Source: Heterodontus francisci (taxonomy: Eukaryota). Taken from it: a DNA stretch of 64,000 bases. Below the pieces are notes generated by a model. The model was not told the origin of the DNA and searched no databases. It saw only the letters and a program-made list of their open reading frames with translations. Position 1 is the first letter of the stretch. Each line of letters starts with the position of its first letter. Shown in pieces: positions 655 through 60,847 of this stretch. The stretch spans positions 50,066,430-50,130,429 of the forward strand of contig NC_090399.1 of NCBI RefSeq assembly GCF_036365525.1. Reading direction: 5' to 3'. The translations under genes and the position numbers were made by a program.

Positions 655-798
655 CATTCTTTAAACACCAGCCCAGTCCGGAGTTCTTTCCATTTTTATA
701 CTTGTACAAAACAGCAGCAACAGCACCGATGAAGCAAAGCAAGACAATCACCAAAACGATAGAGACAATTATCCCCGTTTTCGAACCATTGCGTTCAT
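655..798 (-). CDS. MHC class I gene A, exon 5 (connecting peptide, TM, start of tail); later exons lie left of the window
   Basis: DERNGSKTGIIVSIVLVIVLLCFIGAVAAVLYKYKNGKNSGLGWCLKNG; cactcag| acceptor, G|gtaag donor, 144 nt, in frame with alpha3. Confidence 0.88.
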
Positions 799-4114: not shown

Positions 4115-4390
4115 CCCAGGGTCTATCCAGTGTTTCAGACAAGCTGCTGTGTTCGACGCGGCAGATGTGCTGACGACTATCCCCGGGTTTGGTCTGCAAG
4201 GATATCCTTATTTGGTAGGTGCCATCATGGTTGGGTAGAATTCCTGTGCTTTGGGGTTTGGAGAGCGGTTTACCGTCTATAAGCCAGGTCACGTTGATGG
4301 ATGCAGGGAAAAAGCCAGTGACCAGGCAATGGAGATTGAGATTCTGGCCATTGGAGGTCTTCCTGCCATAGACCATCACATCTGGGGCAA
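4115..4390 (-). CDS. MHC class I gene A, exon 4 (alpha3 Ig C1-set domain)
   Basis: VAPDV...LHCLVTGFFPASINVTW...ILPNHDGTYQ...HICRVEHSSL...PW; (CT)n-rich acceptor ctcctcag|, |gtatgg donor, 276 nt. Confidence 0.95.
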
Positions 4391-9696: not shown

Positions 9697-9972
9697 CTTT
9701 ACGATTTAGGTCCCCGTTGCTGTACATGAGGTATTTCCTTAACCATTTGATGCAGATTTGCTGTGTGTACTGCTTCTTGTATTCGTTATCAGCCTTGTTG
9801 TTGTTCCACTTGCGCTTGGTGACCAGGGCAGCAGGTGAGGAGGTAACCCACATCGTGTGCTCCAGGTCGAAGCTGATCAGGTCTCGCCCATTGAAGGCGT
9901 ACTGACGAACTCCGCCTACAGCGCCGTCATCTCTCAGCTCGCAGCCCGACGTGTATTGCAGGAAGTTCAGTT
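9697..9972 (-). CDS. MHC class I gene A, exon 3 (alpha2 domain)
   Basis: KLNFLQYTSGCELRDDG...QYAFNGRDLISFD...VTKRKW...YTQQICIKWLRKYL...RK; both canonical Cys present; tatttag| acceptor, |gtcggt donor, 276 nt. Confidence 0.95.
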
Positions 9973-11989: not shown

Positions 11990-12253
11990 TTGTCATGTTG
12001 CTGTTTGTTCGCTTTGTTGCTATTTGTACATTGGCGAGCGACAGCTTCTCTCGGTCGAGCAATCTCAATGTCTCTTTGTCCCAATAATCTGGCTCCTCCG
12101 TTCTATTCATCCAAGGCTGTCGTGGGATATCTCTTTTGCTGTCACTGTCATAGTAGGTTATCTGTACGCCGTCCAGAACACCAACGTGAATGAACTCGGG
12201 GAAGTTCACACTGTTAAGCATCGAGGTATAGTAATACCTCAGGTAATGTGACT
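11990..12253 (-). CDS. MHC class I gene A, exon 2 (alpha1 domain)
   Basis: ESHYLRYYYTSM...FPEFIHVGVLDGVQITYYDSDSKRDIPRQPWM...DYWDKET...KRTNSNMT is a typical class I alpha1; ttgacag| acceptor, |gtaag donor, 264 nt, phase 1/1. Confidence 0.95.
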
Positions 12254-14029: not shown

Positions 14030-17000
14030 CTTTTTTTAAGACATTTTATAAAATAACTATGAAAACAGATAAATAAAACAAAAATTCAAATTAAAATGTC
14101 ATTCTCGGTGTCGATGATGCACTCCAGTCTCTGCGGTGCCCACCGGCTGTGGAAGGCCTCAAGCGTACCGACGAACACCACATGTTCCTTCTCCAGGGAC
14201 ACCTGGGCATGAACACAACCGTGAAAGAGGGGCAGGTAATCAGGGTGGACGGACCCTCCGATGGCCTGCAGCCTGCACCTGTGAATTGCCACATTGGCCA
14301 GGCCCAGGAGCAGACCGATTAGGAGATCCACCTCCCGGCCCACGCCCCTCCGGACCGGGCGCCCAAAGATCAGGAGCGTGGGGCTGAAATGCATCCAGAA
14401 CTTGAGGAGCAGGCCCTTCAAATACTCAAACAGGGGCTGCAACCTCACACACTCCATATACACATGGAACTCAGACTTGTCCAGGCCACAGAAATTACAG
14501 GTGGCCCGGGAGTCCGTGAACCTGCTTAAAAGTCTATTGCATGGGACTGCCCTGTGCAGCACCCTCCACCTCAGGTCCCCAGTGTAAACGGGGAAGACTC
14601 CCGCGTACAGAGACCTCCACCGGGGTTTCCCTTCGCCGCCAGATGGCAATGTGGACCGTCAAGGCGTGTCTGGCTCGCTGACAAGGGCGATGAAGTGCAG
14701 AGGTGCAGGAGCAGCCCGTACAGGAAACCCCTCTGCGCTGTTTAGAATGGCACGGAGGGCATTTCCGAGAGGCGGCTCAGGTTGTGCGGGACCGGCTCCT
14801 GAGGAGGGTTTCGGGGCCTGGGTCCGATGAGCAGTTCCGGCTGAACGGGGTTCAGCTCGGCCGGGAGCGTTCCATACTCCCGATACCCCTCGTCACCTGC
14901 AGTGAGGGGTGTCCCGGGGACTTCAGCTACTCCTTCGCCTGTCGGTCTGTCCCCAGAGCCAGCTCCCTGGACAGCTGAGGTGCTTTCCTCCGCCGGCGGG
15001 GGAGCGCCCTGACTGGAGGCGACCATGTTCCAGAATCTGAATAGATCCCGGTAAAAGACAGGCAACTCCCTCAGAGAGGCGCGGCTAACGGTCTCCGCCG
15101 GGAGCTGCCTGTCGTCTTGAAGGCAGTGCCCTGGCGGAAAAAATACGTCATCAGTGCACACCATCTGGGAGGACGCTCGACGTACAAGTATCTCTGCGGG
15201 GTCCGAAGATGGAGAGTCGCAGCCTGGGTGCGGACGCACACCAGTGACTGGCCGCCCTCCTCGATCGGAAGACTCAGGACCGTGGCAGAGACCCAGTGTT
15301 TCCTCTTGCCCCAGAAGAAATCGACGAGTTTCTTCTGGATCTTGGTGGGACATGCAAAGGGCAGGGCCAAAGTGACCAACCGGTACCACTACATTGAGGC
15401 CACCAGTTGGTTTACGACCGGCCCTCGGCCCCTGTAGGAAAGCACTTGGAGCAGTCCTGTCCAGCACCCCAGCCAAGCGGTGACTTGCGCCTCCAACTCC
15501 TGCCAGTTTGCCGGCCAGGCTTCCTCAGCGGGGCTAAGGTGGACTCCCAGATAAAGGAGGTGCATGGTTCTCCACGCAAAAGGTGTTAGCTTCTCCGATA
15601 GGGAGCCCACCACTGACCCACCAGGAATCCGGAACATTTCACCCAAATGATCCTCGCGGAGGACGTGGCAGAAAAGGTCTGCTGGCAGTCGCGCATCCTC
15701 CGCAAGTCAACGGGATCTGTGACCGCGTGGAGCACGTCATCGGCGTAAGCCAAGAGGACGACCCGTATGGCTGGGCCTCGTACAGCCAATCCCATCAGGG
15801 ACGGCTCCATGCAGATGGTATACATTGGCTGGATATGGGGCATCCCTGACGCACTCCTCTCCCAAAGCGAAGGGGCGCTGTCAAGGACCCGTTAACTTTG
15901 ACCAGACGCTCTGTGGCGGCGTATATAAGTCGGACCCGGTCCTCAAAATGCAGCCCAAGTTCGAATGCACGCAGAGTCCCGAAAAGGTATTCTTGATCCA
16001 CCCTGTCAAATGCCTTCTCCTGATCGAGGGAGAAAGGTGACCGACAGGCCAGTCCTCTGGGAAAGATGGATCAGGTCCCGGACCAGGTGGATGTTGTCCT
16101 GGATGGACCGGCCCGGGACCATGTAGGACTGGTTGGGGTGGATCATGTGGGCCAGCACGGAGAATAGGCAGGTAGACATCGACAGGGCAAAGATCTTATA
16201 ACCCGTACTGAGGAGGGAGACCGGAGGCCAGTTTTTAAGCAAGTGGAGATTGTCCCTCTTCGGCTGCAGGACGATGACCGCCCTGCACCACGAGATGGGC
16301 ATCTCCCCAGTCGTCAGGCTTTCCCCCAGGACCTGCGTGTAATCGTCCCCCCAGGACGTCCCAGAACGCCCTGAGGAACTCCATGGTCAGCCAGTCCAGT
16401 CCTCGGGATTTGCCCCTCGAGAGCTGGTAGAGGGCGCCGGTCAGCTCCGTCAACGTGAGCGGAGCCTCCAATCCTTCGGTGGCCTCTGGGATGACCATTG
16501 GCAGGTCTTCCCACAAAACTCTGCGCGCTGATTGGATCCGGAGAGAACAATGCACTGTGATAGGTACAGACCAGGAGGTCTATTCCCTACGGATCTGTGA
16601 TGGAGGATCCGTCGTCGGCCAGCAGCTCAATGAGCTGCTTACGGAACCCCTACCATTTTTACAGCAAGTAGAAGAAGGGCGAGGCGCAGTCCGAATCTTC
16701 CAGGATATGGATCCGCGACCTCACGTACCCGCCTCGGGACCCTATGAGCTGCAGGCCCCTCAGCTCGCCCTTCCTCTCTTTGTATGTCTATCACAGGGCC
16801 GGGTCCACGACGGCATGACCGAGGCGGGACTCCAAGTCGAGCGCTTCCCTCTCTATGCGTCTGATCTCGGCTTCTCGCCTCTTGGTCGACCCCTTCGCGT
16901 ACTCCTGACAGAAGACACGGGTGTGAGTCTTGCCGACATCCCACCATAGCCTCAAAGAGGGGAATCCCCCTGCTTCCTTCTCCAGTCGGCCCAGAATTGA

Positions 17001-19800
17001 CGAATGAGTCCCGCAATCGCTCGTCCTCCAGCAGCCGGTTGTTAACGTGCCAGTACCTGTGTGCTGAGCAGAGTGAACTCTTCCCACACCAGGTGGTGGT
17101 CCAAGCAAGGCACCAGCCACATGGAGGCCGCCGAGATGTGGGAGATGTACGTCTGCAAAATGTAGAGGCAGTCGATTCGGGACCCTCCTCCTCCAGACCT
17201 CCATGTGAAGGCGCTGGAGTCGGGATGGAGATTCCGCCAGATGTCCACCAAGCAAAGGGAGCTGATCAGTTCCCTCAACTTTTCCACCGACGCTTGGCCA
17301 CGCTGGGAACCGCAGCGATCCCCCACCTCGAGTTTTCAGTTAAAATCCCGCCCGAGGATGATGCACTCGCCACTATTGATAGAGCTCAAGAGAGCGGACA
17401 CTTCTTCAAAGAAGTGCGCTCGCAATGCACCGGGCCTGGGCATGTACACGTTCACAAAGTAGAGTGGCACGCTACCCAGGCGAACGGCGAGGTGGAGCAA
17501 GCAGCCCGGCATGAGCTCCTTGACCCCCAAGATCTTCGGCTGAAAGGTCGGGGCCAACAAGATAGCCACCCCTCCAGAAACAGAGTGAGGTGACTCATGT
17601 AGACTCCAACAAGATAGCCACCCCTCCAGAAATAGAGGTGAGGTGACTCATGTCACTCCAGGAGCCAGGTGACTTCATCTCCCAGAACGGTGTAGGTTTC
17701 CTGCAGAAAGCTCACCGCATATCTCCCTTCCCTAAGGACAGAGATTGTGAAATCTGCGGTGAGACGCCCTGCTGCCGTTGATGTTGAGGCTGGCTATAGT
17801 TATCTTCATGTCAAAGGTACTTAAAAACCGTCACCAAAACGTCACTGTGAGGAGGGAGCGGAAGTGCACCTGGCCTTCCATTCCCACAGCAACCCATTGA
17901 GGAACGCATTAAATCGGCACCTCTCAACCAGTTTCACGCCCATGCCCTTCCCCGCTTTCTTGAGGGCGGTACGGATGGACCGGATAATCAGCGCCAGATT
18001 CGACCAATGGCCAAGGGCCAGCTGAACTTTATTGAGGCAATCCCTGCATGCCGTGAGGAAATCCCGGAGTTCCACCGTGGAGATGAGAGGAGACTTGGTG
18101 GGAGGCACGAGGGACTCCACCGCCTCACTGGCGATGGAATCAAGATCGTCCTCTGTGCCCCACATCGAGTCCCCATCCTCCTCCGGGTTGTCACTGCCAG
18201 CGGCTGACACACCCACCACACGGTGTGGGGCGGACATCCCGTTCGCGCCAGCTGGTCCTGGCCCCGTCACGATCCCACCCCAGGATCGATGGCGGAGGAG
18301 TCCTCTCTGGGTTCTACTGTGAAAATGGAGCCTATGGGCACCAGCAGTTCAGGACGCCCTCCACCTCTGTACCCAGGCCAATGAGCAGTCCAGGGGAGAC
18401 TCCGGAAATCCAGCCGGAGCCAAGACCGGAGGTGGAAAGGAGGCCATCTCCCTCCCCACCAGCGTCCACAGGCCCAGCAGATGGGGCAACATTTTCAACT
18501 ATAACTGGGTTGGGTACACCCTGGTCAGGGGTGGATTTTGGCTGGGAGGGCCGACCCTTTGGGGTCTTGCCCTCCCTTCCACTCAGGGTACCAGACCCAG
18601 TGGCAGAATGGGAGGCTTCTCCAGGAACATCCCCAGGCTCCCCCACCACAATCAGGGCTCCACTTGCTCCTTCAGGAGGGGCTGCATGTACAGGGGCCTC
18701 CCCCTCCTCCTCTCCTCCATCCTAAGGGCTAGGGAGCTCCTGCCCAGGCTTTACAGTCTTGATGGTGGTGGCGGCAGGGAGAACCTGGGGACCCGAACCA
18801 GGAGAGAGCTCCCCTCCAACAGATGGGCCCTGTGTTGCCTCCGTGGAGGGGTGCCTTCTCCTCTTTTTCCCACTTGGGCGCGGAGGTTCAGAAACCTCCA
18901 TGTTATCAGAGGCCTCCACCTCGGCACCCTCCTTTTTTTCAGTTATCCTGGGCCTGAGGTGGGTTCCCCGGGACTGGGACTTGGGCTGAGCTCAAGCTCG
19001 GGTTGTGCCATGGTGTCTCGGGGAACCGCCTCTTGGGGTTTATTTTTCCTCCGCATCTTCCTTCCACAGGGATGGGCACCCCACTCCCCGTCGGTGGCCA
19101 TGAAAACCACAGCCTCCGGAACCCACTGAGCTGTATGTGTTGAAGGTGCAGGGGGAGTGGGAGGAAGTGCAGTGGCACCACCCTGGGCTGCCGAGGTGGA
19201 GTTGGCGGCCGGGAGGTTGGGGCAGTTCTTGCGAACATGCCCCACCCTCTTGCAGACATGGCACCACTTCCCATCCGAGGTCCAGAAGACGGTAGGCCAT
19301 CCCCTGGAACTCCACACTGAAGTGGCCTCCAAGACCTCTTTCCGCGCCAGCTGCATAAATAGCTGGTGCCGGAAGGAGTAGACATGCCAGAGGCTGTTTT
19401 CCCGAAGACCGAGTGGGACTGGAGTGAGCCCTGACCTCACCTGCCACAGATGGTGCAGGTGGGGGAGAAGGAGCTCACTGGGAATGAATGGCGGGAATTT
19501 GATAGCATTATCAGCTGTGCGGTGGCCCCCAGAGGCTCCACCAGCAGGAAGGTCCCCTCCACAGTGAGCCCCTTACTCAGGGCCAAGGATACCGCCCGCT
19601 CGCCTTCCCGTACATCTTTGAGGCTGCCACAATGGCCAAGGGGCTGACAACCTCGGCCATTGCCTTTACACAAGCCTCTATAGTCATATTGGGGTGGGGA
19701 TAGCTCTTTACCACCATGGCTATACGTAATTTAATTTAAAGGGTGATGGGATCACATGGGCAGCCACAGAGGCTACAGCCGCATTGGTTTGAGAGGGCCC
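14030..19800 (-). mobile_element. Near full-length, decayed Tx1/L1-clade non-LTR retrotransposon
   Basis: ORF1 zinc knuckle CHVCKRVGHVRKNC; ORF2 from ATG 17809 (MKITIASLNINGS, endonuclease GRDFN/SRID), RT GVRQGCP and LAYADDV, C-terminal CNFC..H...C; many frameshifts; A-rich 3' end. Confidence 0.92.
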
Positions 19801-19839: not shown

Positions 19840-20965
19840 CAGGGAGCCCTAGCAAAACTGCAGTCAATGGGAATCAGGGGAAAACTCTCCGCTGGTTGGA
19901 GTCATACCTAGCGCAAAGGAAGATGGTTGTGGTTGTTGGAGGTCAATAATCTGAGCTCCAGGACATCACTGCAGGAGGTCCTCAGTGTAGTGTCCTAGGC
20001 CCAACCATCTTCAGCTGCTTCGTCAATGACCTTCCTTCAATCATAAGGTCAGAAGTGGGGATGTTCACTGATGATTGCACAATGTTCAGCACCATTCGTG
20101 ACTCCTCAGATACTGAAGCAGTCCGTGTAGAAATGCAGCAAGACCTGGACAATATCCAGGCTTGGGCTGATAAATGGCAAGTAACATTCGCTCAACACAA
20201 GTGCCAGGCAATGACCATCTCCAACAAGAGAGAATCTAACCATCTCCCATTGACATTCAATGGCATTACCATTGCTGAATCCCCCACTATCAACATCCTA
20301 GGGGCTACCATTGGCCAGAAACTGAACTGGAGTAGCCATATAAATACCATGGCTACAAGAGCTACAAGAGCTACAAGGTCAGAGGCTGGGAATTCTGTGG
20401 TGAGTAACTCACCTCCTGACTCCCCAAAGCCTGTCCACCATCGACAAGGCACATGTCAGGAATGTGATGGAATACTCTCCACTTGCCTGGATGGGTGCAG
20501 CTCCAACAACACTCAAGAAGCTCAACACTTTCCAGGACAAAGCAGCCTGCTTGATTGGCACCCCATCTACAAACATTCACTCCCTCCACCACCGACGCAC
20601 AGTAGCAGCAGTGTGTACCATCTACAAGATGCACTGCAGCAATGCTCCAAGGCTCCTTAGACAGCACCTTCCAAACCCAGGATCTCTACCAACTAGAAGG
20701 ACAAGGGTAGCAAATACATGGGAACTCCACCACTTGCAAGTTCACCTCCAAGTCACACACCATCCTGACTTGGAACTATATCGCCGTTCCTCCACTGTCA
20801 CTGGGTCAAAATCCTGGATCTCCCTTCCTAACAGCACTGTGGGTGTACCTACACCACATGGACTGCAGCAGTTCAAGAAGGCAGCTCACCACCACCTTCT
20901 CAAGGGCAATTAGGGATGGGCAATAAATGTTGGCCTGGCCAGCGATGCCCACATCCCATGAATGT
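19840..20965 (+). mobile_element. CR1-group LINE 3' fragment
   Basis: MFTDDCT, QAWADKWQVTF, MEYSPLAW motifs. Confidence 0.88.
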
Positions 20966-21445: not shown

Positions 21446-23415
21446 TACTGAGGGAGCACTGCAGTGTCGGAGGGTCTGTACTGAGGGAGCACTGTAGTGT
21501 CGGAGGATCTGTACTGAGGGAGCACTGCAGTGTCGGAGGATCTGTACTGAGGGAGCACTGTAGTGTCAGAGGGTCAGTACTGAGGGAGCACTGCAGTGTC
21601 GGAGGGTCTGTACTGAGGGGGCACTGCAGTGTTGGAGGGTTGGTACTGAGGGAGTGCTGCACTGTCAGAGGGTCAGTACTGAGGGAGCACTGCAGTGTCG
21701 GAGGGTCTGTACTGAGGGAGCACTGCACTGTCGAAGGGTCAGTACTGAGGGAGCACTGCAGTGTTGGAGGGTCTGTACTGAGGGAGAACTGCAATGTCAG
21801 AGGGTCAGTACTGAGGGAGCACTGCAGTGTTGGAGGGTTGGTACTGAGGGAGTGCTGCACTGTCAGAGGGTCAGTACTGAGGGAGCACTGCAGTGTCAGC
21901 GGGTCAGTACTGAGGGAGCACTGTAGTGTCAGAGGGTCAGTACTGAGGGAGCACTGCAGTGTTGGAGGGTCAGTACTGAGGGGGTGCTGCACTGTCAGAG
22001 GGTCAGTACTGAGGGAGAACTGTACTGTCAGAGGGTCAGTACTGAGGGAGTGCTGTACTGTCGGAGGGTCAGTATTGAGGGAGTGCTGCACAGTTGGAGG
22101 GTTGGTACTGAGGGAGAACTGCAGTGTTAGAAGGTCAGTACTGAGGGAGAACTGTACTGTTAGAGGGTCAGTATTGAGAGAGAACTGCAGTGTCAGAGGA
22201 TCAGTACTGAGGGAGAACAGTACTGTCAGAGGATCAGTACTGAGGGAGCACTGTACTGTCAGAGGGTCAGTACTGAAGGAGAACTGTACTGTCAGAGGGT
22301 CAGTATTGAGAGAGAACTGCAGTGTCAGAGGGTCAGTACTGAGGGAGAACTGTACTGTCAGAGGGTCAGTACTGAAGGAGAACTGCAGTGTCAGAGGATC
22401 AGTACTGAGGGAGAACAGTACTGTCAGAGGATCAGTACTGAGGGAGAACTGTACTGTCAGAGGGTCAGTACTGAGGGAGTGCTGTACTGCCAGAGGATCA
22501 GTACTGACGGAGAACTGCACTGTCAGAGGATCAGTACTGAGGGAGAACTGTACTGTCAGAGGATCAGTACTGAGGGAGCACTGTACTGTCAGAGGATCAG
22601 TACTGAGGGAGCACTGTACTGTCAGAGGGTCAGTACTGAGGGAGAACTGTACTGCCAGAGGATCAGTACTGAGGGAGAACTGTACTGTCAGAGGATCAGT
22701 ACTGAGGGAGCACTGTACTGTCAGAGGGTCAGTACTGAGGGAGAACTGTACTGGCAGTGGGTCAGTACTGAGGGAGCACTGTACTGCCAGAGGATCAGTA
22801 CTGAGGGAGAACTGTACTGTCAGAGGGTCAGTACTGAGGGAGAACTGTACTGCCAGAGGATCAGTACTGACGGAGAACTGCACTGTCAGAGGATCAGTAC
22901 TGAGGGAGAACTGTACTGTCAGAGGGTCAGTACTGAGGGAGAACTGTACTGTCAGAGGATCAGTACTGAGGGAGCACTGTACTGTCAGAGGGTCAGTACT
23001 GAGGGAGAACTGTACTGCCAGAGGATCAGTACTGAGGGAGAACTGTACTGTCAGAGGATCAGTACTGAGGGAGCACTGTACTGTCAGAGGGTCAGTACTG
23101 AGGGAGCACTGTACTGTCAGAGGGTCAGTACTGAGGGAGAACTGTACTGCCAGAGGATCAGTACTGAGGGAGAACTGTACTGTCAGAGGATCAGTACTGA
23201 GGGAGCACTGTACTGTCAGAGGGTCAGTACTGAGGGAGCACTGTACTGCCAGAGGGTCAGTACTGAGGGAGAACTGTACTGTCAGAGGGTCAGTACTGAG
23301 GGAGAACTGTACTGTCAGAGGGTCAGTACTGAGGGAGCACTGTACTGTCAGAGGGTCAGTACTGAGGGAGAACTGTACTGTCAGAGGGTCAGTACTGAGG
23401 GAGCACTGCAGTGTT
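21446..23415. repeat. 30-bp minisatellite, about 65 copies
   Basis: cagtactgagggagaactgtactgtcagag(g/a); 10-aa periodic ORFs on both strands. Confidence 0.95.
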
Positions 23416-23429
23416 GATGTTATCAATTA

Positions 23430-24570
23430 GTCAAGCATCATCTGCCTTATATAAATCCATGCTGGCTATCTTTAATTAACTCAAACCTCTCCAAGTGCCT
23501 GTTGATATTTTCTCTGATTATTGTTTCTAAAATCTTACCCACAGCAGATATTAAACTAACTGGCCTGTAGTTGCTAGGACTGTCCTTACACCTTTTCTTG
23601 AATAAGTCTGCTTCCAATTAAGCTGTTCTACCTTACATCCTTCCTTGCTTTTCTGTATTAGGTGTCTAAACCTTATGATACGATTGTCCCCCCACAGACA
23701 CTGAGGCCACTTGGTCCACTTCCTTTCCCAGCACGTTTATTTTTAATTTTCCTACTATCGCTGGTATGTTATCCTCTTCCTCTATGTGACAATGAATACA
23801 AAGGACATATTTAATAACTCTGTCATGTTATCTCTTACAATACTGCCTGTGTCTGTCTTTAATGGCTCACAATTCCCTGAGCCACTCACTTACTCTTAAT
23901 ATATTTCGAGAAACTTTTACCAATTGCCTTTATATTAATTACCTGAACTTTTTTCCCCGTATCCCCGTATTACAACTCTCAGTATAATCATTATGTTCCT
24001 GTGTTACTTTCTATATTTCTCATAGTCTTCCATGTTATCACTTGTCTTTGTATTTGAGCACTTGGACTTTATACTGTGTCTTATCTCACATGTGGACTTT
24101 GGTTGCGTGACTGTACAAGTGGAATTTTTAATCTTTACGTGTAAGTTTTGGTCTTGAATTGTACTAAATACTTTGTTGAATATCTCCCTCTATTTTTCTG
24201 TCCGTCTATCTAAAAACAGCTCAACCCAGTTTAATGTCTTCAGCTTAAGTTTTATTCACTCGAAGTCAACCTTGCTTAAGTTTAAATTCTTGGTTTGTGT
24301 GATCTTTCTCCTTCTCAAACAAAGTTAAGCAGTATCATTTGATGTTCACTGTTTGCAAGCCGTTCCCTGACTGTCATGGTTTAAATTAATTCGGCCTCAT
24401 TTCCGCATAACTCAAACTAGTATGGCTTGTTCCCTTGTTGCTTTAAAAAAAAATTGAAATCTGCCCAGCAAACACTCCAGAAATTTGCAGCCTTCACAGC
24501 CTCAGATCTTTAGCTTCTCCCAATCGATGTTAAAATTAGAATTGCCCATTTGAAACATTTTCCATTTGCT
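23430..24570 (-). mobile_element. Old degenerate CR1-like LINE fragment
   Basis: NYRPVSL-like motif (ggcctgtagttgctagg) and endonuclease-like remnants. Confidence 0.5.
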
Positions 24571-24802
24571 CCAAGCTTCTCTGATCTCAGTGTTTGTACA
24601 TCCTTCTGTCAGGAGACCTGGAGACAAATCCTATCAGAGTCTTCCACACTGTACTGTCTTCAATGGTGTAAAATATCAGACTGGGTGTAGAACAGGAGGC
24701 TGATCAAACATCACCCATTTCAAACCCTCACCCAAAGTTTAACATTAACCCCATCGAGAGACAGAGAGAGAGTGAGAATGGAAAACTGAATTCTGTACTT
24801 AC

Positions 24803-24854
24803 CGGGACAGACCCAGGAAAAACACAGGGAGATGGAGAAAAGGATCAGCAACAT
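24803..24854 (-). CDS. MHC class I gene A, exon 1 (signal peptide MLLILFSISLCFSWVCP); linkage to the gene A body is inferred
   Basis: ATG at 24854, hydrophobic 17-aa leader, ends phase 1 at G|GTAAGT; joins alpha1 in frame (G+AG=Glu); X/Y-box promoter directly upstream; 49/52 nt identical to gene B leader. Confidence 0.75.
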
Positions 24855-25034
24855 TCTGGGAATCCACTGTCCCTATTCCATCAGTCACTGGGAATAAAAC
24901 ACTCCGGGGGGGGGGACACAATTACTGCTTATTAACTGGAAAAACAGGTAAAACAACAAACCGACCTAGACCTTATTTACAGTCGAACTTAAACTTTGAT
25001 CATTTCCTGAAATATAACTGCAGAACTAAAGGCA

Positions 25035-25115
25035 GATGATAGGTTAGTCTGTGAAAAATAACCCAATGAAAGGGATAAGCAGCTGCCTGTCACCAGTTAC
25101 CAGGAAACTGAGACT
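25035..25115 (-). promoter_or_regulatory. Gene A proximal promoter: degenerate ISRE, X box, Y box; proximal CCAAT altered
   Basis: Minus strand CTCAGTTTCCTGGTAACTGGTGA (X1-like, cf. CCTAGCAACAGATG), CATTGGGT Y box at 25063-25067, CCTAT where gene B has CCAAT. Confidence 0.7.
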
Positions 25116-25374
25116 CAGACAGGTTGCGATTCAGACTGTGAAACAGAAACTCTGAGTGAGATTGAACAGGTCTCATAGACCAGCTCCAGTGTAAAGAGAG
25201 GAGACACTGGGATCCTGGGCTCCCCGCTCACAGTAAACACACTGACACTGGTCCCACTCCCACTGGGAACTGTTAAACTGTCTCTGGTCAGACTGGAGTT
25301 ATACCACAACAAGTTACATTTATAAACCACCTTTAATATAGGGACTATCACAAAGGGACATCACAGAGAAACTC

Positions 25375-25625
25375 ACTAACAGGAGGAGAGGGGAGAGAGT
25401 GACACTTACAGGAAGAGAGTGAGGGGAGGGAGTGACACTAACAGGAGGAGAGTGAGGGGAGGGAGTGACACTAACAGGAGAAAAGTGAGGGGAGGGAGTG
25501 AGACTAACAGGAAGAGAGAGAGGGGAGGGAGTGAGACTAACAGGAGGAGAGTGAGGGGAGGGAGTGACACTAACAGGAGGAGAGTGAGGGGAGGGAGTGA
25601 CACTAACAGGAGGAGAGTGAGGGGA
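25375..25625. repeat. 33-bp purine-rich tandem repeat
   Basis: acaggaggagagtgaggggagggagtgacacta units. Confidence 0.9.
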
Positions 25626-25689
25626 TGGGACAGTTTTGGATCCATCAGGTGTGATGTGGAGTTGTGTTTCTCACACGGCTCTTCCTGAT

Positions 25690-28285
25690 GTGAACCCCCA
25701 CACTGATCTCTGTTTATTCGACCCACTCCATGAAACCCACACTGGGCTCTGTGTACTCAACCCACTCTATGAACCCCCACACTGGGCTCTGTGTACTCGA
25801 CCCACTCCATGAACCCCCACACTGGTCTCTGTGTAATCGTCCCACTCCATGAACCCCCACACTGGGCTCTGTGTACTCGACCCACTCCATGAATCCCCAC
25901 ACTGGGCTCTGTGTACTCGACCCACTCCATGAAACCCACACTGGGCTCTGTGTACTCGACCCACTCCATGAATCCCCACACTGGGCTCTGTGTACTCGAC
26001 CCACTCCATGAAACCCACACTGGGCTCTGTGTACTCGACCCACTCCATGAATCCCCACACTGGGCTCTGTGTACTAGACCAACTCCATGAACCCCCACAC
26101 TGGGCTCTGTGTACTCGACCCACTCCATGAATCCCCACACTGGGCTCTGTGTACTCGACCCACTCCATGAAACCCACACTGGGCTCTGTGTACTCGACCC
26201 ACTCCATGAAACCCACACTGGGCTCTGTGTACTCGACCCATTCCATGAATCCCCACACTGGGCTCTGTGTACTCGACCCACTCCATGAATCCCCACACTG
26301 GGCTCTGTGTACTCGACCCACTCCATGAAACCCACACTGGGCTCTGTGTACTCGACCCACTCCATGAATCCCCACACTGGGCTCTGTGTACTCGACCCAC
26401 TCCATGAATCCCCACACTGGGCTCTGTGTACTCGACCCACTCCATGAAACCCACACTGGGCTCTGTGTACTCGACCCACTCCATGAATCCCCACACTGGG
26501 CTCTGTGTACTCGACCCACTCCATGAATCCCCACACTGGGCTCTGTGTACTCGACCCACTCCATGAACCCCCACACTGGGCTCTGTGTACTCAACCCACT
26601 CCATGAAACCCACACTGGGCTCTGGGTACTCGACCCACTCCATGAATCCCCACTCTGGGCTCTGTGTAATCAACCCACTCTATGAACCCCCACACTGGGC
26701 TCTGTGTATCCGACCCACTCCATGAACCCCCACACTGGGCTCTGTGTACTCGACCCACTCCATGAACCCCCACACTGGGCTCTGTGTAACCGACCCACTC
26801 CATGAACCCCCACACTGGGCTCTGTGTACTCGACCCACTCCATGAACCCCCACACTGGGCTCTGTGTATCCGACCCACTCCATGAACCCCCACACTGGGC
26901 TCTGTGTAACCGACCCACTCCATGAAACCCCCACACTGGGCTCTGTGTACTCGACCCACTCCATGAACCCCCACACTGGGCTCTGTGTACTCGACCCACT
27001 CTATGAAACCCCCACACTGGGCTCTGTGTACTCGACCCACTCCATGAACCCCCACACTGGGCTCTGTGTACTCGACCCACTCCATGAACCCCCACACTGG
27101 GCTCTGTGTACTCGACCCACTCCATGAACCCCCACACTGGGCTCTGTGTATTCAATCCACTCCATGAAACCCCCACACTGGGCTCTGTGTACTCGACCCA
27201 CTCCATGAACCCCCACACTGGGCTCTGTGTATTCAATCCACTCCATGAAACCCCCACACTGGGCTCTGTGTACTCGACCCACTCCATGAACCCCCACACT
27301 GGGCTCTGTGTACTCGACCCACTCCATGAACCCCCACACTGGGCTCTGTGTACTCGACCCACTCTATGAAACCCACACTGGGCTCTGTGTATCCGACCCA
27401 TTCCATGAACCCCCACACTGGGCTCTGTGTATTCAACCCACTCCATGAAACCCCCACACTGGGCTCTGTGTACTCGACCCACTCCATGAACCCCCACACT
27501 GGGCTCTGTGTATCCGACCCACTCCATGAACCCCCACACTGGGCTCTGTGTAACCGACCCACTCCATGAAACCCCCACACTGGGCTCTGTGTACTCGACC
27601 CACTCCATGAACCCGCACACTGGGCTCTGTGTACTCGACCCACTCTATGAAACCCCCACACTGGGCTCTGTGTACTCGACCCACTCCATGAACCCCCACA
27701 CTGGGCTCTGTGTACTCGACCCACTCCATGAACCCCCACACTGGGCTCTGTGTACTCGACCCACTCCATGAACCCCCACACTGGGCTCTGTGTATTCAAT
27801 CCACTCCATGAAACCCCCACACTGGGCTCTGTGTACTCGACCCACTCCATGAACCCCCACACTGGGCTCTGTGTATTCAATCCACTCCATGAAACCCCCA
27901 CACTGGGCTCTGTGTACTCGACCCACTCCATGAACCCCCACACTGGGCTCTGTGTACTCGACCCACTCCATGAACCCCCACACTGGGCTCTGTGTACTCG
28001 ACCCACTCTATGAAACCCACACTGGGCTCTGTGTATCCGACCCATTCCATGAACCCCCACACTGGGCTCTGTGTATTCAACCCACTCCATGAAACCCCCA
28101 CACTGGGCTCTGTGTACTCGACCCACTCCATGAACCCCCATACTGGGCTCTGTGTATTCAACCCACTCCATGAAACCCACACTGGGCTCTGTGTACTCGA
28201 CCCACTCTATGAAACCCACACTGGGCTCTGTGTACTCGACCCACTCTATGAAACCCACACTGGGCTCTGTGTACTCGACCCACTC
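25690..28285. repeat. 39-41-bp minisatellite between the gene B 3' end and the gene A promoter
   Basis: gacccactccatgaacccccacactgggctctgtgtactc units. Confidence 0.95.
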
Positions 28286-29135
28286 CCTCTACCTGGGAAC
28301 TCATTGATCACCATCTCTGTTTCGAACGTCCATCATTGAAACTGTGTCCTCCTGGTCCTAATCTCACGGTTTTGTGTAAGTCCTTCTCAGGTTTCATTTC
28401 CCTGCACTGTTTGTTGTTTTATAAATCTCTCAGGTGCTTCCTTTCCAGGTTGAATATCCCAAGTCTCTCCTGTCTTTCCTGATAACTCAGAGCCCTGACC
28501 CTGGGGGTGAGTCTGGGGATTTCTCTCTGCACTGCCCCCAGGGTCTGAGTGTTTCCCCTGTGTCTCAGTGACCTGAACTGGACTCAGTACCAATGAGAAC
28601 ACTGGGCTTCATGGGTTTACCAGGCAGCCGAGGTCTAACAGTGAATGATGTTTCCGTTTGGTCCATGAACGGCCTTAACTCAGCCGGTTCACATTGAATT
28701 TCACCTCAATAACTGCTGAGTACAAGAACCACAAGCTGCTGAGTGAATGAATGAAACCTTTCCTGTTAAATCATTAAAGATGAATTCAGACAAGTCAATC
28801 AGTGACAATTATTTATTGACGATAAAACACAATTATCACCATTTGTAGTTAAACATTGATGATATAAATAATAGCAGATCAGAATAGTTACTGACACTAT
28901 CACCTAGTAATTTAAATAATAAATAATGAATAGATGGAGACATTTATGGAAATGAATGTGTTTGTGAGATAGCTGAGTATATCATTGGAATTCAGCATGA
29001 ATTGGGCTTCTCATTGTCAAACTCTAGCTGAGATCAGAGTGTGAGACTGATATCAATGAGACAGATTAATTTAAAGAGTTATTCCTATAATATTTGACCA
29101 GTTAACTGTTTGAGCTAGCTAGTTTATTGAGGTAG
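28281..29135. repeat. Segmental-duplicate 3' flank, homologous to 44855-46020
   Basis: Long near-identical stretches (ccctctacctgggaactcattgatc...); near-identical spurious ORFs MFSLVLSPVQVTETQG at both sites. Confidence 0.9.
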
Positions 29136-30107: not shown

Positions 30108-31586
30108 GGTCAGGAGGACAGTGAAATTATTCTGACTGGTTTTAACAGTGCCTGGGAGGGTGAGACAGGGTCAGGAGGACAGTGAAATTATTCTGACAGG
30201 TTTTAAAAGTGTCTGGGAGTGTGAGACAGGGTCAGGAGGACAGTGAAATTATTCTGACAGGTTTTAACAGCGTCTGGGAGGGTGAGACAGGGTCAGGAGG
30301 ACAGTGAAATTATTCTGACTGGTTTTAACAGCGTCTGGGAGGGTGAGACAGGGTCAGGAGGACAGTGAAATTATTCTGACAGGTTTTAACAGTGTCTGGG
30401 AGGGTGAGACAGGGTCAGGAGGACAGTGAAATTATTCTGACTGGTTTTAACAGCATCTGGGAGGGTGAGACAGGGTCAGGAAGACAGTGAAATTATTCTG
30501 ACAGGTTTTAACAGTGTCTGGGAGGGTGAGACAGGGTCAGGAGGACAGTGAAATTATTCTGACAGGTTTTAACAGTGTCTGGGAGGGTGAGACAGGGTCA
30601 GGAGGACAGTGAAATTATTCTGACTGGTTTTAACAGCGTCTGGGAGGGTGAGACTGGGTCAGGAGGACAGTGAAATTATTCTGACTGGTTTTAACAGCGT
30701 CTGGGAGGGTGAGACAGGGTCAGGAGGACAGTGAAATTATTCTGACAGGTTTTAACAGCGTCTGGGAGGGTGAGACAGGGTCAGGAGGACAGTGAAATTA
30801 TACTGACAGGTTTTAACAGTGTCTGGGAGGGTGAGACAGGGTCAGGAGGACAGTGAAATTATACTGACAGGTTTTAACAGCGTCTGGGAGGGTGAGACAG
30901 GGTCAGGAGGACAGTGAAATTATACTGACAGGTTTTAACAGTGTCTGGGAGGGTGAGACAGGGTCAGGAGGACAGTGAAATTATTCTGACAGGTTTTAAC
31001 AGTGTCTGGGAGGGTGAGACAGGGTCAGGAGGACAGTGAGATTATTCTGACTGGTTTTAACAGCGTCTGGGAGGGTGAGACTGGGTCAGGAGGACAGTGA
31101 AATTATTCTGACAGGTTTTAACAGCGTCTGGGAAGGAGAGACAGGTTCAGGAGGACAGTGAAATTATACTGACAGGTTTTAACAGCGTCTGGGAGGGTGA
31201 GACAGGGTCAGGAGGACAGTGAAATTATTCTGACTGGTTTTAACAGCGTCTGGGAGGATGAGACAGGGTCAGGAAGACAGTGAAATTATTCTGACAGGTT
31301 TTAACAGTGTCTGGGAGGGTGAGACAGGGTCAGGAGGACAGTGAAATTATTCTGACAGGTTTTAACAGTGTCTGGGAGGGTGAGACAGGGTCAGGAGGAC
31401 AGTGAAATTATTCTGACTGGTTTTAACAGTGTCTGGGAGGGTGAGACAGGGTCAGGAAGACAGTGAAATTATTCTGACAGGTTTTAACAGTGTCTGGGAG
31501 GGTGAGACAGGGTCAGGAGGACAGTGAAATTATTCTGACTGGTTTTAACAGCATCTGGGAGGGTGAGACAGGGTCAGGAGGACAGT
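30108..31586. repeat. 61-bp minisatellite, about 24 copies, last intron of gene B
   Basis: ggtcaggaggacagtgaaattattctgacaggttttaacagtgtctgggagggtgagacag. Confidence 0.96.
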
Positions 31587-31640
31587 GTTAATGTCACAAA
31601 TTGATTAATGAGGGGAAAAATTGAAATTTCACTTACTGTA

Positions 31641-32987: not shown

Positions 32988-33020
32988 TGTGAGCTGTTGT
33001 GTCGGTCACACTTGGTGAAT
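32988..33020 (-). CDS. MHC class I gene B, exon 6 (cytoplasmic, DSPSVTDTTAH)
   Basis: 33-nt exon, ttccacag| and |gtaagt; homologous exon conserved in gene C. Confidence 0.85.
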
Positions 33021-33952: not shown

Positions 33953-34072
33953 CTCTCTGTTGCATTTTCCAGATGATTATTCCGATTATTCCCAATATAA
34001 CAGCCAGTGCAGCGATCACTGATCCAGTTATAATTCCAAGATGCCAGCGTCCCCCATTGTTTTCCGGGATTT
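33953..34072 (-). CDS. MHC class I gene B, exon 5 (TM)
   Basis: EIPENNGGRWHLGIITGSVIAALAVILGIIGIIIWKMQQR; gtttcag| and |gtaag, 120 nt. Confidence 0.93.
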
Positions 34073-35066: not shown

Positions 35067-35345
35067 CCCACTGATGCAGCTTGGCCTCTGCCAGGCTGCT
35101 GTGATCAATTCGACAGGAGTATTGATCCTCTTCCCCAGCATTTATTTCAATCTCTTTCTGGATCTGATGAGTCCCATCGTGGTTCGGTCGCACCCCCGAG
35201 GATTGGCTCTCAGACATTACCTCTCCATTCCTGAGCCAGTTCACCTCAATGTCTACAGGATAAAATCCAGTAACCAGGCAGGAGAGAGTGAGCGGCTTGT
35301 ACTGACTATTGGGGTCACTTCTGGAGATGAACACTTCAGGCTGAA
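35067..35345 (-). CDS. MHC class I gene B, exon 4 (alpha3 Ig C1-set)
   Basis: VQPEVFIS...LSCLVTGFYPVDIEVNW...RPNHDGTHQ...YSCRIDHSSL...QW; attacag| and |gtaag; follows a 117-bp intron. Confidence 0.96.
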
Positions 35346-35462: not shown

Positions 35463-35738
35463 CTTTCCTTTCAAAATATTTCTCTCCAGCTCGCAAATAT
35501 AACTGTAGATGCTTCACAGATCGTTCTTCCAGATAGACTTTCCAATACTTGTTCCAGGATTCATCAGAATTCCATTTCTCCTTAACCCTGACTGCATTAT
35601 GATTGGTTGCAATCCATCTCATTCTGTCAGACTCTAAACTAATATAGTCCTTTCCATCATATCCAACATGCATCGATCTCTTAATGGAGCCATCGTGAGT
35701 GACCTTAACACTAGTCATCCATTGGAAAGTGTGAATTC
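35463..35738 (-). CDS. Non-classical MHC class I gene B, exon 3 (alpha2, no cysteines)
   Basis: GIHTFQWMTSVKVTHDG...GYDGKDYISL...VKEKW...YLEERSVKHLQLYL...ERK; ctgacag| and |gtat, 276 nt. Confidence 0.95.
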
Positions 35739-39876: not shown

Positions 39877-40137
39877 CGGAAGTTTGGTTTGTACTCTTCA
39901 TTATCATATTCAGATTCTCCTTCACCATGTCTGATCGTGAGGCCCCAATACCTGTGATATATTCCCAGTATTCCACACTGAAAGAGTCTGCCATGAACTG
40001 CTGCCTGGGGATTATCCGACCAATATTCGTGTCATAACAATCTATTTGAACTCCATTGACCATCGCGACACCAATAACCTGAGGAAAATCTTCAATACCA
40101 GAGACTGCTGTGTATATCACAGTAAATGTGTTACTAT
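39877..40137 (-). CDS. Non-classical MHC class I gene B, exon 2 (alpha1)
   Basis: NSNTFTVIYTAVSGIEDFPQVIGVAMVNGVQIDCYD...IPRQQFM...EYWE...STNQTS; N86 sequon NQT; ttttacag| and |gtaag, 261 nt. Confidence 0.95.
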
Positions 40138-41041
40138 CTGTAAAACAATGAAAGGGACATATTAATAAACATGTACACTCATTACTAGTTAGACCCATCC
40201 ACAGTCTGGGACACATGCAGGGGTTGGGTGATAATCCCAGAAGAGTAACCTAGGACACGCTCAGATGTGTCTGTAAATACTTTTGGAGGTCGGTGGTAAG
40301 TTTAAATGTTTTACTACACGCCTCATTTGGAGGACACGAGTGGTGTTGATTTCTGTCCAGTGGGACTGAGGTTCCCAGTGTTACCTCCCTTTCAACTACA
40401 CATCTCACTGTCTTTCTTCATTCCTCCCCCTTCCAGCTGACTCTGTCACTCAGCCAGAGGAACTGTGATGTCTCTGGCACCGACTGGGCACTGCAAACTT
40501 CCTTCTCAGATATATAGGTGAGGGAATGGGATTATCCTGAAAACATACAATCCAATGACACATTGAAGAGGAATTCTTTCTAAACAGTTCATACAGACTT
40601 AGTTCTTGAGGTATCCATCAGTTTTGCAGTCAGCTCTTTAGAAAAAAGAATATGTTAAACACATTCCAGCCGGAGAGCCATGTCTTAGTTTGGTCAATGT
40701 AATTCACTATTTTCACGTTTGTTTTGGTTAAATTGTCAGCACTGTGGAAACACAGTCAATTTTTTCAGTCGCTCCTGAGGTTAAAGTGCTGCAGCAAAAT
40801 GCATTTTAGTGTCCTGTAATGTTTAGGACATCTTTATTTAAAAAGACCTTGTTTAAAAAAATTTAAACTCACTGAAGCGATACAAAGCAAGAATGTCTTC
40901 AATGTGGCTGAGCGTACATTTCCGTGGAGTTGAACAATTTGTACAAACCCTCACCCAAAGTTAAACATTAACCCCAGAGAGAGAGATAGAGGGAGACAGA
41001 GAGAGAAAAAGTGAGAATGGAAAGCTGAATTCTGTACTTAC

Positions 41042-41093
41042 TGGGATCGACCCAGGAAAAACACAGGGAGATGGAGAAAAGGATCAGCAACAT
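41042..41093 (-). CDS. MHC class I gene B, exon 1 (signal peptide MLLILFSISLCFSWVDP)
   Basis: ATG at 41093, A|gtaagt phase-1 donor, in frame with alpha1 about 0.9 kb downstream. Confidence 0.92.
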
Positions 41094-41249
41094 TTGGGGA
41101 ATCCACTGTCCCTATTCACTAAGACTAACACTAACAATTACTGCTTATTAACTGAAATTCCCAGAATAAACAACATGTCTATCCAGACCCCATTTACTGT
41201 CGAACTTGAAATATGATCATTTTCTGAACTGAAACTGCAGAACCAGCGA

Positions 41250-41332
41250 GTGATGATTGGTTAGTCTCTGAAAAATGACCCAATGAAAGAGATAAACAGG
41301 AACCTGTCACCAGTTACCAGGAAAGTGAACAC
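41250..41332 (-). promoter_or_regulatory. Gene B proximal promoter: ISRE, X box, Y box, CCAAT
   Basis: GAAAGTGAAC (IRF-E-like) 41321-41330; X1-like CCTGGTAACTGGTGA 41307-41321; ATTGG Y box 41280-41284; CCAAT 41256-41260; order matches vertebrate class I promoters. Confidence 0.75.
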
Positions 41333-41369
41333 AGACAGGGTCGAGATTCAGGCTGTGAAACTGACCCGA

Positions 41370-42630
41370 AGAGCTGAATTTTCGCCACTGGAGCAGGGAA
41401 CAGGAGCTGGATTTGTTTTCGGGTCAGGAACCTGCTTCTGGTGGAAAACTGATTAAAGTTAACATTTTCACGTGGGGGGGGGGGGGGGGGGGGGTGCATT
41501 AGTTGCTATGGAGACGGGTTCCGTGTCCACTCAGAGCCAGTGGGGGCGGCAACAGAGGCGGGTCAGATGAAATGTGGGACTGATTTAGACTCCTGGCAGC
41601 AGCTATCATTGAGGCTGCTGGTTGTCCGAAGGGAGAAATCTGCTGGTTGCACCAAAGACTTTGACAGCAGCAGAGGGAAGTGGGATGTCACAGGGAACTG
41701 GAGGCCTTGCACCCGGGACAGGGCTGCCCCTCGCTTCATTGATACTGAACTGGATCTAACACTGAAGGCTGCGAGGGAGAGGAGGGAGGTCCTCTTCCTG
41801 GAGGATGGCAGGAGGAGGCCAACACTTCACACCGAGCACTGAGTGGGTCACCCTGATATACTGTCCCTGTCTCTGTCTCCTGTTTTCCTCTACACTGGGT
41901 AAATGATGACACTTTAAGCAGACGTATGGGATCCTTTTATTACTGCTGTGACAGGAAAAGTGGTTTGAGGTTGTGAAAGAGGTAACAGGATCCTCCACAG
42001 TGAGGACAAAGCCTCTGGGCAAATGTTCTCCCTTCATTGGCAGTAAGTAATGAGATGCTCCAGGTTGTGTTTTCCATACATGTGTTAGCACAGGTATCTC
42101 AGACTCCCTTCCATATCCTGTCTCTCAACCTGGGGCAGAGGGGCTCAGTTGAAATGTTCCTCAATCAGGAGATCCCTGACTGTCATGTCATCCTCACCGG
42201 TCCTTCACACCCTGAGCCATGCCCAGCCACCTTGTTGTGCAGCAGGGGCACCTCCCTGTTCAGTGTCAAGTCCCTCTGCCTTCTCTTCCTCGTCCTCCTC
42301 CTCCTCCTCTCTCACCTCCTGCTCCTGCTTCTCCCCTGATGAGCTGTCTCCTTCCAGGGCCTCGCCGTCCTCAATGTCCACACCTCTCTGGAGGACCATG
42401 TTATGGAGAGCACAGCAGGCCAACACAATGACCAAGACCCTTGTAGGAGGGTATTGGAGGGTGTCACCTGACCGGTCCAGGCACTGGAAGCACATCTTCA
42501 GAAGGCCGATGGTCTGCTCAATGGTTATTCTATTGAGTAGGTTGAATTGGTTGTATCGCCTCTGTCTGAACTCCTGTAGAGAGGTGAGTAGCCATGTCTT
42601 TAAGGGATATCCCTTATCCCCTAGGATTCA
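41370..42630. mobile_element. PIF/Harbinger transposon remnant (Myb/SANT-like ORF on +, DDE transposase C-terminus on -)
   Basis: Minus: LGDKGYPLKTWLLT...IEQTIGLLKMCFQCLDRSG..LQYPP...ACCALHN; plus: RAAPRF...ARERREVLF. Confidence 0.8.
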
Positions 42631-44545: not shown

Positions 44546-46285
44546 TTCTTTTTTTTCTTTTCTTTTTCTGAGGCCCTCAGATTCCAAGGAAACTAAATGC
44601 TAATGCCCATGTTTCTTCTTGACCTTCCTTGTCTCCAGGAATTCCTGTGAGACTGGGCTGGGAACGCACCTTGTGACCCTGTTAAAGTTTCTCTCTGTGA
44701 ATCTCAGTGAGGATTTCCACCAGTCTGGAGTCTGGGCCTCACTGTCTGGTCAGGATGTGGTGTGAGATCAGACGGAGCCAGTGAGTTACACGCTGCTGTC
44801 ATCTTCACCCCCACATGACCCTCATTGGGAGTGGGGGTTAAAATCAGGCCCCATTCCCTCTACCTGGGAACTCATTGATCATTGTCTGTGTGATGAACGT
44901 CCCTCATTGAAACTGTGTCCTCCTGGTCCTAATCTCAGTTTTGTGAAAGTCATTCTCAGATTTCCTCTCCCTGCACTGTGTTTCTTGTTTTATAAATCTC
45001 TTAGGTGCTGCCTTTCCTGGTTGAATATCCCAAGTCTGTGCTGTCTTTCCTGATAACTCAGAGCCCTGACCCTGGGGGTGCGTCAGGGGGTTTCTCTCTG
45101 CACTGCCCCCAGGGTCTGAGTGTCTCCCCTGTGTCTCAGTGACCTGAACTGGACTCAGTACCAGTGAGAACACTGGGCTTCATGGGTTTACCAGGCAGCC
45201 GAGGTCTAACAGTGAATGATGTTTCCGTTTGGTCCCTGAACGGCCTTAACTCAGCCGGTTCACATTGAATTTCACCTCAATAACTGCTGAGTACAAGAAC
45301 CACAAGCTGCTGAGTGAATGAATGAAACCTTTCCTGTTAAATCATTAAAGATGAATTCAGACAAGTCAATCAGTGACAATTACTTATTGACGACAAAACA
45401 CAATTATCACCATTTGTAGTTAAACATTGATGATATAAATAATAACAGATCAGAATAGTTACTGACACTGTCACCTAGTAATTTAAATAATGAATAGATG
45501 GAGACACCTAAAAACAACAATAATTTGCATTTATGCAGAATCTTTAATGTAGCAAAATGTGTAACAGGAGTGTTCGCAATAAAAGTATTTTTAACACTGA
45601 GTAAGAGGAGGCGATACCAGGACAGGTGACCAAAAGCTTGGTCAAAGAGGGAGGTATTGAGGAACATTTTAAAGGGGGAAAGAGAGCTGGAAAGGTGGAG
45701 AGGTTTAGAGAGGGAATTCCAAAGCTTAGAGCCAAGGCAGCTGAAAGCACGGCCTCCAATGGTGGAGTGATTAAAATCAGGGATGTGTAAGATGTCAGAA
45801 TTGGAGGAACTTGGAGATCTCGAAATGAACATGAGAGTTTGTGAAGGTTGTTCAGTGTATCATTGGAATTCAGAATGAACTGGGTTTCTCATTGTCAAAT
45901 TCTCAGAGATCAGAGTGTGAGACTGATATCAGTGAGAGAGATTAAAAATTAGGATTTACACTTTCAATAGCCAACAAGTTAACAGTATGAACCAGCCAGT
46001 TTATTGAGTAGGTTCAGGTCTATGTACTGCTAGTTAACAATGTTTCCAGTGCTTACACGACTCTATCGTTATGAGGTTGAGTTGATTATCCTGCCCTGGG
46101 ATGGGGAATGTCCAATTGGTGACGAGGTTTTTTCCTCCATTCGAATCCTCTGCTCCGGTTAAACTTACATTACACACGAGTGATGTGTGGGAACTCACTG
46201 GCTCAATTCTCACCTTCCTTCATCTCACATTACATGTAATTAAACAAGTCTCTAATTTCTGTCTGTAACTGACTCATATAACCTT

Positions 46286-60727: not shown

Positions 60728-60847
60728 CTCTCCGTTGCATTTTCCAGATGATTATTCCGATTATTCCCAATAAAACAGCCAGTGCAGCGATCACTGATCC
60801 AGTTATAATTCCAAGATGTGAGCGTCCCCCATTGTTTTCAGGGATTT
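60728..60847 (-). CDS. MHC class I gene C (paralog of B), TM exon; upstream exons not in window
   Basis: EIPENNGGRSHLGIITGSVIAALAVLLGIIGIIIWKMQRR, 37/40 aa identical to B; intact splice sites. Confidence 0.9.

Follow-up and report, generated by a model that had tools for sequence, protein, structure and literature searches.

The promoter and first exon of gene A, a class I gene of the horn shark, are best explained as the terminal part of the final repeat unit in a neighbouring array of very distant class I genes (B-type genes), whose copies have likely overwritten them repeatedly; we put the probability of this reading at roughly 0.7. The window, by which we mean the whole 64,000-nucleotide stretch analysed, carries class I genes A and B and the 3′ end of a third, C, all on the minus strand, with the following exons and flanking features.

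655..798, minus strand: gene A transmembrane exon; the tail exons lie left of the window
4115..4390, minus strand: gene A alpha3 exon
9697..9972, minus strand: gene A alpha2 exon
11990..12253, minus strand: gene A alpha1 exon, UDA-like, single copy
24803..24854, minus strand: coding part of the gene A leader exon (17 codons plus 1 nt), followed by a GT donor at 24802 and joined to 12253 in RNA-like contigs
24855..24982, minus strand: 5′ UTR part of gene A exon 1; RNA-like contigs reach 24959–25000 depending on the run, and contigs cannot show the start
25691..28286, no strand assigned: 40-bp minisatellite, with an 88–90% match also upstream of copy D
28287..28942, minus strand: 3′ flank of B, 94% identical to 44858–45506 (3′ flank of C) and 93–98% to the flank of E
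33953..34072, minus strand: gene B transmembrane exon; tail exons begin near 33018 and 31670
35067..35345, minus strand: gene B alpha3 exon, 96–99% nucleotide identity to alpha3 of C, D and E
35463..35738, minus strand: gene B alpha2 exon, lacking both canonical alpha2 cysteines
39877..40137, minus strand: gene B alpha1 exon, UEA-like
40944..41364, minus strand: gene B promoter, exon 1 (leader 41093–41042) and start of intron 1
60729..60845, minus strand: gene C transmembrane exon; the remainder of C lies right of the window

Across 324 kb of contiguous neighbouring sequence the 3′ half of E comes first, followed by D, C, B, A and finally a divergent class I gene. The tandem run D–C–B lies immediately upstream of A, with the 3′ half of E beyond it. 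Two further B-type copies, F and G, lie 2–3 Mb from the cluster. The first two exons of E are on a separate small contig, C130, that ends in a satellite; the same satellite occurs on C29 ahead of an orphan B-type alpha2 exon, and we infer that these two exons and the orphan alpha2 belong to one gene. On C130 the terminal satellite (C130:771995-785930) is over 14 kb long and matches C29:50315407-50329999, upstream of that orphan exon, and it likely marks an assembly break within gene E.

Gene A and the B-type genes belong to clearly separate lineages. The alpha1 exon of A is single copy (one match at 100% and the next best at 45%, among 23 matches from 44 candidates), while the genome contains six B-type alpha1 exons at 47–100% identity, with the next best match at 37%. 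A retains 8 of 9 peptide-terminus residues (Y7, Y59, R84, T143, K146, W147, Y159 and Y171, with L at position 123), the columns being set by Triakis class I; three of these anchors are altered in B (V7, S84 and V143). The UEA lineage has lost invariant peptide-terminus residues; it occurs in sharks and is not known from rays or chimaeras. The UDA lineage shows low polymorphism and restricted expression, lower than that of classical UAA. Both alpha2 cysteines are replaced in B (by V and S) and in the epaulette shark B-type protein that was checked (by A and F), so the family is likely to lack the usual alpha2 disulfide. Orthologues of A occur in sharks and rays, and an alpha2 tree unites all 10 rows with support of 100/99; B-type homologues were sharks in 12 of 12 matches (55 candidates), in a word-seeded search that is weak on absence. 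A PDB search returned general class I structures only, 6lup being the best.

The closest named relative of A is nurse shark QGX07421.1, deposited as 'nonclassical MHC class I antigen'. The sequence-only reading had placed a peptide-binding class I gene under the promoter of a non-classical family, and this contrast falls away, as A is itself non-classical. An elasmobranch class Ib cluster made up of single-copy UDA, multicopy UEA, and UFA has been described (Verissimo et al. 2023, PMC10751288), and its supplement marks the white shark and catshark loci of the A orthologues as MHC-Ib; the string 'UEA' has 0 occurrences in the supplement text. From copy number, clustering and homology we infer that A is UDA-like and that B to G are UEA-like. 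The divergent class I gene downstream of A, on the same strand (C29:50028-50046 kb), is likely the CD1-like UFA named in that paper. In zebra shark, whale shark and catshark annotation, the orthologues of A and of this divergent neighbour are merged in one protein model.

Exon 1 at 24803, some 12.5 kb from alpha1, is A's own. Three sequencing runs, X1–X3, were guessed to be RNA, none being recorded as such, and were used as contigs. In X1 and X2 a contig matches 24803–24878/9 with 0 differences and continues with 30 letters identical to window positions 12224–12253, the start of alpha1. The splice from 24803 to 12253, which the sequence-only reading had proposed to look for in transcripts, is thus present in RNA-like contigs; because X1–X3 all come from one sample, it counts as one observation. 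The 76 matched bases are identical in copies A and E, and a second contig carrying the A-specific upstream UTR is found in X1, X2 and X3. Contigs cover 24803 to about 24980, the intron beyond being uncovered except for one 33-nt partial match. The same leader-to-alpha1 join occurs in the deposited nurse shark protein and in one short-contig protein. The possibility that 24803–24854 is an orphan exon is ruled out by the origin of the 30 loose letters in X1 and X2. Within the 5′ UTR of A (24900–24910), a poly-C run is 3 nt shorter in the RNA-like contigs than in the assembly, which may reflect an allele or a homopolymer error.

The segment that A has in common with the B-type copies comprises three nested features.

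24509..25628, minus strand: cassette common to B-type copies (promoter, exon 1 and first 294 nt of intron 1), with a sharp end of homology at about 24509
24509..24802, minus strand: intron 1 tract, the youngest shared segment, 284/294 identical to D and 285/294 to E
25155..25355, minus strand: upstream element, 92–96% identical in A, C, D, E and G

Self-BLAST aligned the promoter-to-intron region of A with that of B (24721–25147 against 40944–41364, 78.0% over 445 columns, E 1e-100), and the leaders match at 49 of 52 nt (3 differences), much as had been proposed from the sequence. The homology with B is real, but B is the least like A of the four in-cluster copies, and the tract, present as claimed, is longer, running 25628–24509 against D and 25532–24509 against E. 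Past about 24509, D and E stay alike while A departs. Leader differences from A, out of 52 nt, number 0 in E, 1 each in C and D, 3 in B, 4 in G and 6 in F. The nearest partner of A shifts along the cassette, from C in the 5′ UTR to E in the leader and D or E in the intron; these segment-wise figures omit copy F, and the evidence for the intron tract at 24509–24802 comes from the assembly alone. A genome search found the cassette at 7 of 7 candidates, all at class I genes, each upstream of one alpha1 exon (that of A and the six B-type exons). A dispersed repeat is therefore ruled out within the reach of this DNA search, which skips common words.

The 200-nt upstream element at 25155–25355 is more conserved than the proximal promoter, reaching 93% identity even in the distant copy G, and two partial copies of it lie between D and C; it gave no match at B or F. 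We regard it as a candidate enhancer. A fragment of a DDE_Tnp_4 (Harbinger-type) transposase lies at 42208–42627, about 1 kb upstream of the B promoter; since homology of the B cassette stops near 41364, an insertion may have removed the upstream element of B. Pattern matches in the A promoter include a CCAAT-like motif at 25067, an X-box-like motif at 25101 and an ISRE-like motif at 25151; these matches to consensus patterns are offered as description only.

The gene bodies downstream of these cassettes are far more divergent. Alpha1 of A and B agree at 27 of 86 amino acids and 42% of nucleotides, with saturated synonymous sites (pS 0.85), and the A transmembrane exon matched only itself by tblastn across the window and 19 loci, which bears out the earlier impression of strongly divergent alpha1 domains and unrelated transmembrane exons. 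Against the B-type copies in general, alpha1 pS ranges from 0.67 to 0.92, and dS from A to all six is saturated or at least 1.6; alpha3 of A is 57% identical to the B family in nucleotides over the compared part (pS 0.76). Even between B-type copies, alpha1 dS is 0.93 for C–B and 1.06 for C–D. Non-coding cassette distances (JC), by comparison, are 0.12 for A–C and 0.145 for A–D. Measured by divergence, the cassette of A is far younger than any pair of alpha1 exons compared. The strongest argument comes from the 294-nt intron tract, because its likeness is hard to ascribe to selection.

Site sharing gives the same picture for C. Its sites in common with A outnumber those in common with B by 40:14, with E by 38:13, with F by 35:13 and with G by 50:13 (p ≤0.002); the preference of C for A over D is not significant (p 0.6). 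Copy D prefers A significantly only relative to E and G, the comparisons with B (p 0.15), C (p 1.0) and F (p 0.09) falling short of significance. An unrooted cassette tree of the horn shark copies has weak support inside the cluster (37–66%), with only F+G firm at 98%. Judged from these sequences, paralogues within the species are more alike than their age allows and the likeness stops at a tract boundary, the pattern by which concerted evolution is recognized. The B-type body could be placed neither beside A nor beside UAA, the alpha1 tree giving 59/91 and the alpha3 tree no firm position.

Different B-type exons have different histories. In alpha1, copies group across species: C joins a white shark gene (100/99), and E joins genes of epaulette, bamboo, white and basking sharks (95/81). 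In alpha3 they group by species, with five horn shark rows together at 96/94 and dS of 0.04–0.07 between horn shark copies. The block of preceding 3′ flank, promoter and leader that had been noticed at the C-to-B and B-to-A junctions was confirmed there and also occurs outside the window at E-to-D and D-to-C, so that the repeat unit consists of alpha3, the transmembrane exon, 3′ exons, 3′ flank, promoter, leader and the start of intron 1. With tandem repeats masked, all four junctions have the same order, at 96–98% identity for alpha3, 93–97% for the transmembrane and tail regions, mostly 80–98% for flank blocks and 78–91% for promoter and leader. This shared order, together with the species-wise grouping of alpha3, indicates that the homogenized stretch runs from alpha3 of one gene to intron 1 of the next. 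On this sequence pattern alpha1 and alpha2 are the part spared homogenization, and in the final unit A takes the position of the following gene. At E, F and G the cassette alone is shared (282–654 nt upstream), and no B-type 3′ flank was found near these cassettes in the 14–25 kb examined.

Leaders from other species bear on the origin of the leader type. This leader type is present in 13 of 13 shark A-type proteins that have a leader, galeomorph and squalomorph alike, and a related leader, also of 17 codons, is found in all 4 named ray orthologues; it begins with the same five residues and is identical at 7–9 of 17 positions. Among shark A-type proteins mean identity is 0.93 in the leader (78 pairs) and 0.73 in alpha1, averages that omit two N-terminally incomplete models, whereas in rays leader and alpha1 are equally conserved (0.86 and 0.86, 6 pairs); ray and shark A-type leaders are on average 0.47 identical (range 0.41–0.53). 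Since all shark orthologues carry the leader and rays a related one, the type is likely native to the A lineage, and on that lineage it is likely as old as the shark–ray split, an origin opposite in direction to the one first proposed. It is not general to class I. The idea that all shark class I leaders are equally alike, which had been named as a counter-test, is ruled out, as the leaders of Triakis class I, of UAA-type genes and of the UFA-like neighbours differ. At two horn shark UAA-like regions the leader matches were of the UAA type, and the A promoter, compared with 22 loci around other class I genes, found only low-complexity matches of 27–61 nt, several leaders not being located at those loci.

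Leaders of both lineages were compared in six species, as proteins only and mostly from automatic gene models, with the many B-type models that have no leader or another predicted N-terminus excluded from the counts. In epaulette shark L6 and R14 occur in both lineages, in brownbanded bamboo shark R14 does, and in horn shark S16 is absent from A and from all six B-type copies. White shark and smoothhound have the common leader form in both lineages and are hence uninformative; catshark is discordant, with P13 in the A-type and F2 in the B-type leader. The two lineages thus co-vary in 3 of 4 informative species, two of which are close relatives and may share one R14 event. L6 and R14 also recur in distant A-type genes (sawshark and sevengill shark) and C16 in rays, marking these sites as prone to homoplasy.

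In the explanation that we favour, the leader type would have begun on the A lineage, and an ancient duplication broken within intron 1 would have set an A promoter and leader before the B-type bodies. The shared flank would then supply the homology by which exchange within the array runs into exon 1 of A and stops in intron 1. Gene conversion or unequal crossing-over could be the route, and neither could continue into the intron and exons of A, which are unrelated to those of the array. Two binding grooves with no close relationship are then predicted to have almost the same proximal control and signal peptide. Of the two origins first proposed, homogenization of the regulatory cassette by conversion is supported by the intron tract, the site sharing, the mosaic of nearest partners and the cross-species leader co-variation. 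Its weakness is that part of the cassette similarity may be constraint, because promoters and leaders can face strong selection and sharks evolve slowly.

Carried to its end, that weakness becomes the main competing account, to which we give a minor though real share of the probability: a single ancient event gave both lineages exon 1, either because an A-type duplicate founded the B-type family or through one capture of exon 1, and purifying selection and slow evolution preserved the likeness with little later exchange. The near-invariance of the leader among sharks fits this, as do the common leader of both lineages in white shark and smoothhound and the strong conservation of the upstream element out to G. 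It leaves unexplained, however, why 294 nt of intron should be 96.6–96.9% identical to only 2 of 6 copies, why A is nearer to C than four other B-type copies are, and why species-specific changes are common to both lineages.

The other origin first proposed is a one-time fusion in the horn shark lineage, by which a B-type duplicate broken within intron 1 would have become attached to an older A-type body and replaced A's promoter and leader. It now appears improbable. The sharp end of homology at 24509 and the B-type 3′ flank that makes up the upstream region of A are as a fusion would leave them, and the present copy could stem from a single recent unequal crossover. As a source of the leader a fusion is not supported, since the distribution of this leader type in shark and ray orthologues means that no foreign leader was gained, and a single event would not produce the mosaic of nearest partners. 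Slightly less probable still, and argued by analogy, is that selection keeps the leader identical as a shared peptide ligand of the A-type groove, so that A would report B-type expression, conversion being the means and the ligand role the reason. HLA-E-type presentation of leader peptides is described in PMC1403747, A keeps nearly all of its peptide-terminus anchors, and conservation of the leader exceeds that of alpha1 in sharks, where both families occur, and equals it in rays. The shark leader, on the other hand, lacks a charged N-terminal stretch such as the mammalian ligand has, and homogenization is just as strong in non-coding DNA as in the coding part, something that calls for no peptide function. 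That the assembly collapsed near-identical D/E sequence into the exon 1 region of A is very improbable despite the wealth of tandem repeats and the isolated, satellite-ended contig of copy E, since the region has no N gaps, the RNA-like contigs match the A leader exactly and its upstream UTR bar the 3-nt poly-C difference and join to A's alpha1, and leader sharing recurs in proteins of other species, including the deposited nurse shark protein.

A broader version of the favoured account is possible but tentative: the whole shark UEA-like family would run on the captured promoter and signal exon of a UDA-like gene, with a repeat unit offset into that gene's intron 1, which would couple the cassette of a conserved, single-copy, peptide-binding class I gene to a multigene family of rapid turnover, a tie renewed separately in each lineage across the shark radiation; the shared leader might even be a ligand of the UDA groove.

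Homogenization of class I genes within species is known, mainly for alpha3 (PMC1403747, PMC12674619), with shark lineages treated in PMC12562908. As in the system of PMC1403747, the binding domains of old orthologues persist while a different exon is homogenized per species by likely gene conversion, and the B-type alpha3 behaves just as the homogenized exon there. Unlike that system, the exchange between A and B involves the promoter, exon 1 and the start of intron 1, with alpha3 far apart, and the partners, about 30% identical in alpha1, are far more distant than its mammalian pairs. The terms 'exon 1', 'intron' and 'promoter' have 0 occurrences in the main text of PMC1403747. The arrangement resembles the UDA/UEA/UFA cluster of PMC10751288, where one single-copy gene likewise adjoins a multicopy family and a further, divergent class I gene is present; the passages of that paper used here do not describe a shared exon 1, and 'leader' has 0 occurrences. 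As in primate class I (PMC12674619), exons have separate histories through conversion; there the genes are about 60 My old and introns were not analysed, whereas here a non-coding tract bounds the exchange and the lineages are much older. Our literature search found no report of a shared UDA/UEA exon 1, the primary UDA/UEA descriptions and the supplements being beyond its reach. The case thus resembles known alpha3 concerted evolution and differs from it in the involvement of exon 1 and promoter, the very deep split and the mapped boundary.

It is a mapped case in which class I lineages too distant for coding-domain recombination would still swap a control region, because the repeat unit of the array runs into the neighbouring gene. 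It suggests, in a form open to testing, that a shark-specific class Ib family may have originated by capture of a neighbour's exon 1, and it predicts joint regulation of A and B-type molecules. In practice, 5′ primers, leader probes and short reads cannot separate the A-type from the B-type lineages.

Several minor features of the locus were also recorded. Most of the 12.5-kb intron 1 of A consists of a degenerate LINE-like retrotransposon on the minus strand (14089–19572, with weak zinc-knuckle and reverse transcriptase matches below curated cut-offs), a reverse transcriptase fragment at 19950–20657, and 33-bp and 71-bp minisatellites. Related 33-bp minisatellites (about 78–80%) occupy 21446–23408 in this intron and 4–272 in the intron after the A transmembrane exon. 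One 61-bp minisatellite lies past the last exon of both B (30108–31587) and C (54525–58516), about 96% identical and of different lengths. Elsewhere in the genome, about ten near-identical UAA-like class I copies are found at C29:57.4-62.8 Mb, C815, C1655 and C1290; their alpha3 exons group apart from other UAA-like alpha3 exons, and on these sequences the set is possibly a second domain-swapped family.
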